Source of the DNA: a virus
Lineage: Duplodnaviria; Caudoviricetes
Strand: one strand, 5' to 3'
DNA: 64,000 nucleotides
IMG/VR virus record: IMGVR_UViG_3300032216_001891
Location: 64,001-128,000 of that record
The notes below the pieces were generated by a model. The model did not search any database. It was not told the DNA's origin and saw only the letters and a list, made by a program, of their open reading frames with translations. Positions 48,128 through 49,643 of this stretch are shown here, in pieces (position 1 is the stretch's first letter; each line of letters starts with the position of its first letter). Both the position numbers and the translations under genes were made by a program.

Positions 48128-48410
48128 CGAATATTGTACTCCACTTTCGTAATTTGTTGAATTTGTTTTGTTTTGCCGCTGTTATTTCTTCCTGTGTAAC
48201 AACTCCGTGTTGTTCTAATAGTTCAATCATGGCCACAACATCACCAATTTCTTTCACTAAGTGTTCACGTTGTGTGCCTGACTCTTTGATGTACACATTC
48301 TCCATACCAAAACGTTTGCACTTGCTGATGCTTTGTATCACCTCGGCACACTCTTCTTGTAGTATGTCTAATATTTCGTTAACCTTCGTATATTGCACTG
48401 TTGGCTCCAT
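48114..48410 (-). CDS. MazG-like NTP pyrophosphohydrolase
   Basis: EECAEV...KEIGDV (ExxE...ExxD). Confidence 0.75.
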   Translation of the reverse strand: MEPTVQYTKVNEILDILQEECAEVIQSISKCKRFGMENVYIKESGTQREHLVKEIGDVVAMIELLEQHGVVTQEEITAAKQNKFNKLRKWSTIFDEQD

Positions 48411-49005
48411 GTTCTGCACATTCTACTCGTACACAATAACAACGATTGTTAGTATGTTTTCTAATCAACTGATCGGCAAAATAAAATGCATGTTCGGCAA
48501 ACTTCTCTGCACCCACACCATTGAATATTCTAATTTCGGCTAGGCCCAGTTCCTCTAATTCTTGGAATTTGGCAAGATATGGATCTCGTTTGTCCAATGC
48601 CAATTTATGATCAAACTGATCCTCCAACCAGGCCTTGAGTGGTTTGAGTCCACCAAAGTCCACTGCCCAGTTTTTGTCATCTAACTCGTCACATCCAAAT
48701 GTAAATGTAAATGCTAGACTGTAACCATGTAGCAAATGACAATGACTGTGATCTGCGTTGGGTTGACGAAACACAGCACTGAGTCCAATATTGTGTCCGT
48801 AGTGCTTGGTTGAGTAATATTTTGCCCCAGACCTTTGCCCTGCTAGGGCAATGTCATTGAGTACTTGTTCTGAGGATTGAACCTTATTGCGTAACTGTTC
48901 AATATATTCAGATGTTTCGTCGCTATCCGCCTTGGTGCTATGATAGTGGTTGATGCGAGCATCGAAGTAGTCGCTCAGTGCCGATGTAAAAGTTTTATTT
49001 GCCAT
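48379..49005 (-). CDS. queD: 6-carboxytetrahydropterin synthase with ~58-aa N-terminal extension
   Basis: HSHCHLLHGY, VDFGGLK, FDH, EHGANSA. Confidence 0.88.
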   Translation of the reverse strand: MANKTFTSALSDYFDARINHYHSTKADSDETSEYIEQLRNKVQSSEQVLNDIALAGQRSGAKYYSTKHYGHNIGLSAVFRQPNADHSHCHLLHGYSLAFTFTFGCDELDDKNWAVDFGGLKPLKAWLEDQFDHKLALDKRDPYLAKFQELEELGLAEIRIFNGVGAEKFAEHAFYFADQLIRKHTNNRCYCVRVECAEHGANSAIYEG

Positions 49006-49095
49006 TGTGATTCTCCTATGTTAGATTATAGCATAGGCTTGCAGAATTTGTCGAGCGGGATGAAAGCCAGAGAGTCCGCCGGAAACAGTATTTAT
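49006..49095 (-). promoter_or_regulatory. Structured 5' leader of queD (candidate cis-regulatory RNA) with two promoters
   Basis: CCTATG/CATAGG hairpin overlapping AGGAGA; GGCTT/AAGCC and GCGG/CCGC helices; ATAAATA at 49089-49095; TCGACA-18-TATAAT with TG. Confidence 0.55.
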
Positions 49096-49643
49096 TGTTG
49101 CCACCAGGCTTCCCAAGGAAAAACACACCACACTGGGTCTTCCAGTTTATTGATGTCTGTTCCCGAATAGTCCACCAAAAACTCACTCACAGTGTTGTTC
49201 ACCAGCACAGCAGTTCGAACATTGTGATGCCAGACATTTAGCCAACGATCGTGATTGGGCAAACAACTGCTTTGCCAATCCTCTCGAATCCAAGACAGTG
49301 TGGCACCGGAATCATTGATGTCGTCTACTATTAATATACGTTTAGCATGTATGGTGTAATCAAATGCACTGTTGGTGCCTAGACCTTGATATCCACCATC
49401 CACCCAACCAAATGCATCTTCCGCCATGCTGAGATTACTGGTACATTCATCTCCGTCACGCAGACTCACATCCAGGCTACGCATTGGTACGCCCAAGTAA
49501 TGACTCAACATCAAGGCCGGAGTCAATCCACCACGTGTGAGTCCCACAATGTAGTCGGGTCGCCACGAGCCTTCATGCAGGTCACGAATAATTTCATGCA
49601 CCCAGCCACGAACATCTGCGTCGTTGTAATAGATTTTTTTCAT
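49092..49643 (-). CDS. Type I phosphoribosyltransferase (Gpt-like)
   Basis: GLTRGG, ILIVDDINDSGAT, FPWE. Confidence 0.9.
   Translation of the reverse strand: MKKIYYNDADVRGWVHEIIRDLHEGSWRPDYIVGLTRGGLTPALMLSHYLGVPMRSLDVSLRDGDECTSNLSMAEDAFGWVDGGYQGLGTNSAFDYTIHAKRILIVDDINDSGATLSWIREDWQSSCLPNHDRWLNVWHHNVRTAVLVNNTVSEFLVDYSGTDINKLEDPVWCVFPWEAWWQQ

Follow-up and report, generated by a model that had tools for sequence, protein, structure and literature searches.

Riboswitches are rare in phages, and we know of none for the 7-deazaguanine DNA-modification pathways that shield phage DNA from restriction. The preQ1 riboswitches known from the que pathway are, to our knowledge, all OFF switches, and an ON switch on a biosynthetic gene would be unusual for this pathway. 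Translational ON control is exerted by the Vibrio vulnificus add adenine riboswitch, where one aptamer strand is shared with the anti-RBS helix, while phage T4 gates some of its genes (e.g. e and soc) by means of ribosome binding site (RBS) hairpins that are bypassed by an internal promoter. In the preQ1-I layout, a specificity cytosine immediately precedes the 3′ strand of the 5-bp P1 helix, L3 is A-rich with 4-5 conserved adenines directly before P2, and P2 is a short loop-tail helix of 3-4 bp that carries the Shine-Dalgarno (SD) sequence in its 3′ strand (PMC10622847).

The locus analysed here is located on the minus strand of a 64,000-nt stretch of DNA (the window) from an IMG/VR virus record of 154,554 nt, which at an estimated completeness of 44% must stem from a jumbo phage. 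Five genes form a row, namely folE, a PRTase-domain gene, queD, a MazG-like gene and a radical-SAM QueE-like gene (Table 1). Neighbours in this que region overlap or abut, with an 86-nt gap 5′ of queD as the sole exception. A preliminary description, made from the sequence of the window, had drawn attention to this gap as unusually long and GC-rich for a packed operon; its length stands out as described, whereas its GC content (45%) compares to 43% for the window, and only the aptamer within it is richer in GC (56%).

Table 1. Genes of the que region and elements of the queD leader, numbered from the first letter of the window.
Feature	Position	Strand	Remarks
folE	50389-49640	-	PF01227
PRTase-domain gene	49643-49092	-	Upstream neighbour of the queD leader; TAA stop at 49094-49092
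AATAAATA box	49089..49096	-	Extends across the stop codon of the PRTase-like gene; by consensus match only, a possible promoter of the T4 late type, from which transcription would begin shortly before P1
P1 5′ strand GGCGG	49076..49080	-	Pairs with 49058-49054; 5 bp
L1 ACUCUCU	49069..49075	-	C-U at second and third positions invariant (columns C10 and T11, alignment A2)
P2 5′ strand GGCUUUCA	49061..49068	-	3′ end is the near-invariant UCA; covariation (alignment A3) and RNAalifold
L2 UC	49059..49060	-	C49059 unpaired, invariant, immediately 5′ of the P1 3′ strand
P1 3′ strand CCGCU	49054..49058	-	
L3 CGACAAAUUC	49044..49053	-	A-rich linker; invariant A.A.A and UC (A2, A3)
P2 3′ strand UGCAAGCC	49036..49043	-	Last two C common to the anti-SD hairpin
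Nested sigma70-like consensus	49025..49054	-	TCGACA 49054-49049, 18-nt spacer, TG 49033-49032, TATAAT 49030-49025
Type-A hairpin, CCUAUG - 11-nt loop - CAUAGG	49015..49037	-	3′ arm covers AGG of the SD
SD AGGAGA	49012..49017	-	Kept before the start codon in relatives
queD	48379..49005	-	PTPS/QueD family, 208 aa (PF01242; E = 2.3e-13); start ATG 49005-49003; the regulated gene if the leader is a riboswitch
MazG-like gene	48419-48114	-	
Radical-SAM QueE-like gene	48127-47261	-	

Architecture and conservation of the queD leader

The leader before queD is an H-type RNA pseudoknot, with an aptamer of 45 nt in the window and 35-53 nt in its relatives. Both helices anticipated by the preliminary description are present and are longer than proposed: the GCGG/CCGC stem extends to the five pairs of P1 (GGCGG/CCGCU), and the pairing of the GGCUU loop with AAGCC extends to P2 (GGCUUUCA/UGCAAGCC), which covaries in relatives. 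The P2 duplex of the window (-6.0 kcal/mol) incorporates one U.C mismatch and, compared to most relatives, has one extra pair, with an additional nucleotide in both strands. The final nucleotide of L2 is a C in 136/136 distinct copies, while L3 measures 10 nt in all copies (consensus NNANAAAYUC). Nested minimum free energy (MFE) folding of the window leader is no better than that of shuffled sequences (z = 0.12). Folding of a single sequence in this manner cannot inform on a pseudoknotted structure, and the case for a structure exceeding chance rests on conservation and covariation in relatives rather than on folding energy.

Relatives were gathered by a QueD-based scan of viral contigs, which returned 594 relatives, and 80 loci were kept. 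Comparison by nhmmer with the window leader gave matches directly upstream of queD in approximately 50 of these 80 loci, and compensatory changes were already visible in the first alignment of the leaders found in this way. A 16-base core pattern recovered 120 further viral stretches, nearly all of them genuine, and the total stands at 136 distinct aptamers, all from contigs of uncultured phages.

Compensatory changes are present at three of the five P1 pairs (71 sequences), with the three outer positions occurring as AU/UA/GU, GC/CG/UA and CG/AU/UA. As the original collection demanded P1 pairing, copies were re-defined by L1 and the core only, and all five pairs are present in 154 of the 157 copies defined independently of P1 pairing. 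P2 was evaluated in a gap-free alignment of 37 columns and 104 distinct sequences (A3), which was anchored on UCA and UGC and unselected for pairing. Paired cells account for 84.3% of this helix, as opposed to 23-46% when the partner strand is slid by 1-3 columns. Double-change cells number 159, against 64 +/- 6 in shuffled alignments, and the observed value is reached in 0/500 shuffles, although the relatedness of the sequences inflates the significance in this control, and sliding of the partner strand provides the fairer comparison. At five of the seven P2 pairs, as many as six pair types occur per position, while the proximal C:G and A:U pairs, which adjoin the invariant U.C mismatch, are fixed save for a change of A:U to G:C in two sequences. 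RNAalifold predicts the identical P2 helix by itself. Furthermore, G.U pairs are frequent in P2, which places the constraint on the RNA of this strand.

Outside these pairs, conservation is centred on L1, L2, L3 and the helix junction, where most of the 13 invariant and 10 near-invariant positions of alignment A2 are unpaired. Meanwhile, the QueD subfamilies themselves diverge, as do the SD-AUG spacers, of which the 74 type-A copies (see below) have 54 distinct versions. The conserved pseudoknot in the queD leader is real and strongly supported, and is apparently a phage cis-regulatory pseudoknot that is so far undescribed. Given compensatory changes in both P1 and P2 across more than 100 distinct homologues, as obtained by the covariation analysis of queD leaders that the preliminary description had proposed, and the lack of a match to any Rfam family, its designation as a riboswitch candidate was well founded. 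We regard it as probable that the leader is a phage-specific, ligand-responsive cis-regulatory RNA, in which a pseudoknot aptamer of preQ1-I topology is joined to a translational ON platform.

Expression platforms, predicted switch logic and promoter-like sites

The aptamer is followed by at least four different platform designs, and in each of them the anti-RBS helix takes the start of its 5′ strand from the distal P2 3′ strand. Type A, with 78 distinct copies including that of the window, hides the AGG of the SD. The start codon is hidden in type B (18 copies; GYCAUUG/CAAUGGC) and the AUG in type C (25 copies; GUCRUC/GAUGGC), while the other platforms use GUCUU/GGAGAC or longer anti-start helices. 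The SD is not part of P2 but is located 18-36 nt downstream of its 3′ strand. An alternative pairing of CCTATG with CATAGG over part of the AGGAGA SD, as noticed in the initial reading of the window, is indeed available (CCUAUG 49037-49032 / CAUAGG 49020-49015; -4.6 kcal/mol). It has its CC in common with P2 and its AGG with the SD, and once the two shared C are taken away the remnant of the hairpin has no fold (-4.6 to 0 kcal/mol). When P2 is left out of the MFE fold, the P2 3′ strand is paired to the RBS in 69/78 type A, 18/18 type B, 25/25 type C and 10/12 other copies. Mean platform energies with this strand free are -8.2 (A), -11.1 (B) and -10.5 kcal/mol (C), and change to -3.8, -3.5 and -5.3 kcal/mol, respectively, with the strand held by the aptamer.

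A switch could operate on this overlap as follows. As long as the pseudoknot is not stabilised, CCUAUG would pair with CAUAGG and part of the SD would be hidden. The distal part of the P2 3′ strand (GCC in the window) would serve as the start of the anti-RBS strand as well, and a ligand that locks P2 would lay claim to those nucleotides, upon which the hairpin would fall apart and queD would be translated. Because the P2 3′ strand doubles as the anti-RBS strand, a stabilised pseudoknot should free the RBS, as expected of a translational ON switch, and it is from this competition among three strands that we infer the ON direction, with moderate confidence. In the window, P2 and the hairpin have no more than 2 nt in common, and a crude estimate of the unpaired fraction of the SD rises from 0.43 to 0.50, a small change that is due to the appearance of a weak alternative UGCUAU/AUGGCA pairing.

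The second-codon context AUGG is present in 43/43 type B and C copies, the anti-start pairing of which needs AUGGC, while other second codons occur in 29/78 type A copies. Among 79 copies of the type-A hairpin, 11 C-to-U or A-to-G changes lead to wobble pairs and none is disruptive; the variation in this hairpin is of the wobble-preserving kind only, with no full compensatory changes. Several further candidates in this region were rejected. Pairing of the conserved UGCU with the P1 5′ strand shows no covariation with P1 variants, while its pairing with GGCA of the start region was discarded for type A, where UGCU is kept despite a differing second codon. A leader peptide was also dismissed, the only mini-frame (AUG-CUA-UAA) having no SD and a frame that is not conserved.

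The same DNA contains promoter-like sites both upstream of the aptamer and within the platform. An extended -10 promoter had been proposed in the hairpin loop, and a site with this consensus is present, comprising 11/12 matches to a sigma70-like consensus with a preceding TG, and is a predicted promoter. Among 74 distinct type-A platforms, 71 have retained TGnTAnnnT. Hardly any change is seen at T-12, A-11 and T-7, and the variation falls mainly on the third position of the hexamer, while the loop tail and SD-AUG spacer are free to vary. This pattern fits a working -10 element, and the idea of a bypass promoter, which might add a further layer of control, is retained on these grounds. Part of the platform conservation could therefore act at the DNA level, given that the same DNA reads as a sigma70 extended -10 promoter. 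The -35-like hexamer is located in L3 and is not constrained at its diagnostic TTG positions. No comparable conserved promoter and no consistently conserved -10 element were found in types B and C.

These features raise the question of whether the leader is mainly a temporal gate that needs no ligand, in which the hairpin would hide the SD on transcripts that read through or start at an upstream promoter, while short transcripts from the nested promoter would lack the 5′ arm and be translated freely, with the pseudoknot being of secondary importance. The TCGACA-18-TGcTATAAT site (11/12), the retention of TGnTAnnnT in 71/74 type-A platforms and the precedent of RBS hairpins with internal promoters in T4 speak for such a gate. 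It would, however, leave the pseudoknot, the invariant unpaired nucleotides and the covariation of both P1 and P2 unexplained; types B and C, moreover, retain the aptamer and anti-RBS strand without a consistently conserved -10, and the TTG positions of the -35-like hexamer are free to vary. As the main function of the leader, temporal gating is thus unlikely, while as an extra layer on top of a riboswitch it is quite possible. A MotA box was also considered for UUGCUUAA in the type B platforms and was rejected, as transcription from it would, at the distance required, begin within the gene.

Upstream of the aptamer, a TAAATA-like or TGTATAAT-like box is found no more than 30 nt from P1 in 119 of the 132 relatives, and most commonly starts 11-14 nt before P1, which would place the aptamer at the 5′ terminus of a separate transcript. 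A promoter dedicated to the aptamer, even within operons, is suggested by this consensus. 5′-terminal structures can protect mRNAs, and a pseudoknot placed at the transcript end by this box could act as a 5′-end mRNA stabiliser; other ligand-independent roles would be to set a fixed translation level or to serve as a thermosensor. We hold a structural element of this kind to be improbable, as a stabiliser requires neither approximately 20 invariant unpaired nucleotides nor an anti-RBS strand that overlaps P2, and this overlap recurs in at least four independent platform designs. The exclusive link of the motif to one enzyme family, documented below, likewise argues for pathway-specific sensing and against a plain structural element.

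Distribution, gene context and candidate ligands

The motif is tied to a single gene family. Among the 167 copies with a callable downstream gene, 161 (96%) directly precede QueD/PTPS genes, which belong to several diverged subfamilies and encode proteins of 141-208 aa. Three methyltransferase-like genes, one cupin and one gene of no assigned family are found downstream of the motif as exceptions. A covariance model built from 71 sequences detects one copy in the window and in the entire 154.5-kb record (47.7 bits; next match: 13 bits). A repeated promoter or repeat element was rejected on the basis of this single copy, which, together with the association with QueD, identifies the motif as a queD-specific leader element rather than a generic promoter or repeat.

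Several loci depart from the usual arrangement. At L301 (4955-5800, plus strand) and L252 (6412-6750, minus strand), the motif precedes genes coding for a 282-aa protein without a Pfam family and a 113-aa cupin, respectively, instead of queD. Two aptamer copies with identical P2, 800 nt apart, are present in L006 (2140-2186 and 2937-2990), the first of which precedes a gene for a 236-aa protein without a Pfam hit that is related to L266, while the second precedes queD. A methyltransferase-like gene is found in L259 at the position matching the first L006 gene. The QueD protein of the window itself has an N-terminal extension of approximately 56 aa (48838-49005, minus strand), which is common only to L001 and L002 (94% identity), most QueD relatives being 149 aa in length with the N-terminus MAKYYSTK. 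The extension follows the first codons, with AUGGCAAA being kept, and the old N-terminus AKYYSTKHYGHN resumes behind it; it appears to have been inserted in a way that left the RBS region of the putative switch intact.

No real match was obtained among GenBank phages by blastn with either a 1.4-kb query or an 86-nt consensus-like leader query, and the closest QueD genes of cultured phages, which are at most 55% identical, have neither the leader nor a covariance-model match. For the core pattern in bacterial and archaeal genomes, approximately 277 chance matches are expected from 16 fixed bases. Among the at least 120 matches listed, all of those inspected are without P1, L1 and P2, and those listed have the appearance of chance matches within coding DNA. 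We found the motif described nowhere in the literature searched, and the phage 7-deazaguanine papers that were found make no mention of riboswitches. Judged by these searches, the motif appears to be phage-specific and tied to queD.

Genes upstream of the motif are diverse, with 114 open reading frames falling into 40 unrelated clusters. The largest cluster is the PRTase, as in the window, and others include a cytidylyltransferase-like gene. This diversity bears on the possibility that the pseudoknot binds a protein or other trans factor, such as a phage repressor or activator, QueD or a host factor, which would shift the competition between P2 and the anti-RBS strand. Phages such as T4 use protein translational repressors, which provides a precedent, and the comparative data on structure and switch architecture are silent on the nature of the effector. 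Yet no partner gene is conserved across the 40 upstream clusters, and the element, which is compact and of very small size, has its invariant nucleotides clustered at the P1-P2 junction in the manner of ligand pockets. The preQ1-I-like layout, with a cytosine preceding the 3′ strand of P1, is kept as well, and a trans factor as the effector is rather unlikely.

The PRTase-like and MazG-like genes on either side of queD in the window recur in 26/133 and 21/133 motif-bearing loci, respectively (tblastn). A PRTase gene is also located between queE and queD in the cultured Synechococcus phage ON615601. These neighbours may be a pointer to handling of the deazapurine at the nucleotide level.

The pathway genes themselves offer clues to the ligand. 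By tblastn, FolE was detected in 58 and QueE in 49 of the 133 motif-bearing loci (mean length: 8.3 kb), while QueC was detected in 0/133. The Pfam models of QueC and TGT likewise have no match in the 154.5-kb record of the window (G000). In five motif-bearing genomes of 222-367 kb that are 96-100% complete (G001-G005; the records of L007, L034, L072, L016 and L225), no full-length QueC match was found, and the Pfam search returned short N-terminal PP-loop matches only (best: 26 bits, positions 4-68 of 210). In cultured phages without the motif, QueC adjoins QueD. The motif-bearing phages have FolE, QueD and QueE, and probably stop at CDG or use other chemistry; the absence of QueC may thus point to unexplored chemistry downstream of CDG, or to a pathway that ends there. 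Without QueC, preQ1 is an unlikely product signal, which would point to CDG or an upstream pterin intermediate instead. The cytosine-based pocket that the conserved positions suggest and the gene context would be consistent with a guanine-faced metabolite of the route from GTP to 7-deazaguanine, with dihydroneopterin triphosphate, CPH4, CDG or a 7-deazaguanine base as candidate ligands.

We tentatively suggest, as one possible form of the riboswitch interpretation, that the leader represents a new riboswitch class which senses an intermediate between GTP and 7-carboxy-7-deazaguanine (dihydroneopterin triphosphate, CPH4 or CDG), a metabolite sensed by none of the riboswitches known to us, and turns ON queD, which encodes the first committed enzyme in the hypermodification of phage DNA. 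The nested promoter could possibly bypass this riboswitch and add time-dependent control. If this were the case, the leader would be the first instance of a riboswitch that specifically serves viral DNA modification, and jumbo phages would meter the flux into DNA hypermodification. Binding of a pathway intermediate would furthermore amount to a new ligand class, or to a new specificity on the preQ1-I scaffold, and would provide an ON-type sensor that can be used as a biosensor for deazapurine or pterin metabolites. A compact RNA of 45 nt with strong conservation, covariation and a clear gene association represents a tractable and directly testable case.

Comparison with known RNA families and systems

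An Rfam scan had been proposed in the preliminary description, and Rfam 15 scans at permissive E-values of the window, 12 related loci and two further short stretches gave no family match. Chance matches to snoRNAs, mir-1262, PsrR1 and a CRISPR repeat were dismissed. The freshwater-2 RNA (RF02980), an orphan cis-regulatory motif known from freshwater metagenomes that has a similar SD-AUG end, was the only cis-regulatory family to align (14.7 bits; E = 2.6; gathering score: 49.9; L041:1051-1135, plus strand). This was judged to be a chance match, as it rests on the SD-AUG stretch and the three hairpins of freshwater-2 do not fit. The remark in the preliminary description that the leader departs from the preQ1 consensus agrees with the preQ1 models, as RF00522, RF01054 and RF02680 gave no match at E <= 10 when compared to stretches of 111-116 nt that covered the window leader, a consensus-like copy and the most preQ1-I-like copy (L041 and L053), and RF00522 had no match in 12 related loci either.

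Among the systems that share a working principle with the queD leader, the T4 genes e and soc are matched in that an RBS-hiding hairpin has a promoter consensus inside it, from which the transcript would lack the 5′ arm. Unlike the T4 late TATAAATA box, the nested site is predicted to be of the sigma70 extended -10 type and is confined to type A platforms, and the T4 cases have no counterpart of the upstream pseudoknot. The likeness to the add riboswitch is restricted to the working principle, its three-way junction purine aptamer and its ligand being unrelated to the queD motif. The preQ1-II (RF01054) and preQ1-III (RF02680) riboswitches are also pseudoknots that sense this pathway and target the RBS, but their architecture is of the HLout type, with additional helices, and the queD motif is matched by neither model.

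The closest resemblance is to preQ1-I (RF00522; types I-III), as found in B. subtilis queC, T. tengcongensis and E. coli yhhQ. The queD motif has the same H-type pseudoknot with a P1 of 5 bp, for which the family has 5-6 bp, and, by sequence only, a cytosine immediately 5′ of the P1 3′ strand. It further resembles preQ1-I in its A-rich L3 along P1, its P2 from loop to 3′ tail, its position upstream of a gene of the 7-deazaguanine pathway and its predicted translational control. Some relatives even read AGAGG...CCCUCUAUAAAAA, which resembles the B. subtilis aptamer. The topology, the 5-bp P1, the cytosine, the ACAAA-type L3, these relatives and the que-pathway context could together indicate an ordinary preQ1-I OFF riboswitch that has diverged and still senses preQ1 or preQ0. 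This is, however, very improbable. None of the three preQ1 models matches at E <= 10, and QueC was found in none of the 133 loci and had no full-length match in the five genomes of 96-100% completeness. P2 comprises 7-10 bp with an invariant CA:UG and U.C mismatch, compared to 3-4 bp in preQ1-I; a YUC spacer separates the A-run from P2, and L1 carries an invariant CU. While the SD lies in the P2 3′ strand of preQ1-I, this strand is the anti-RBS strand in the queD motif, with a predicted ON rather than OFF response, and the motif was found, in the collections searched, only in uncultured phages, which lack QueC. From these likenesses and differences, the queD-leader motif appears to represent a preQ1-I-like fold rather than a member of the preQ1-I family.
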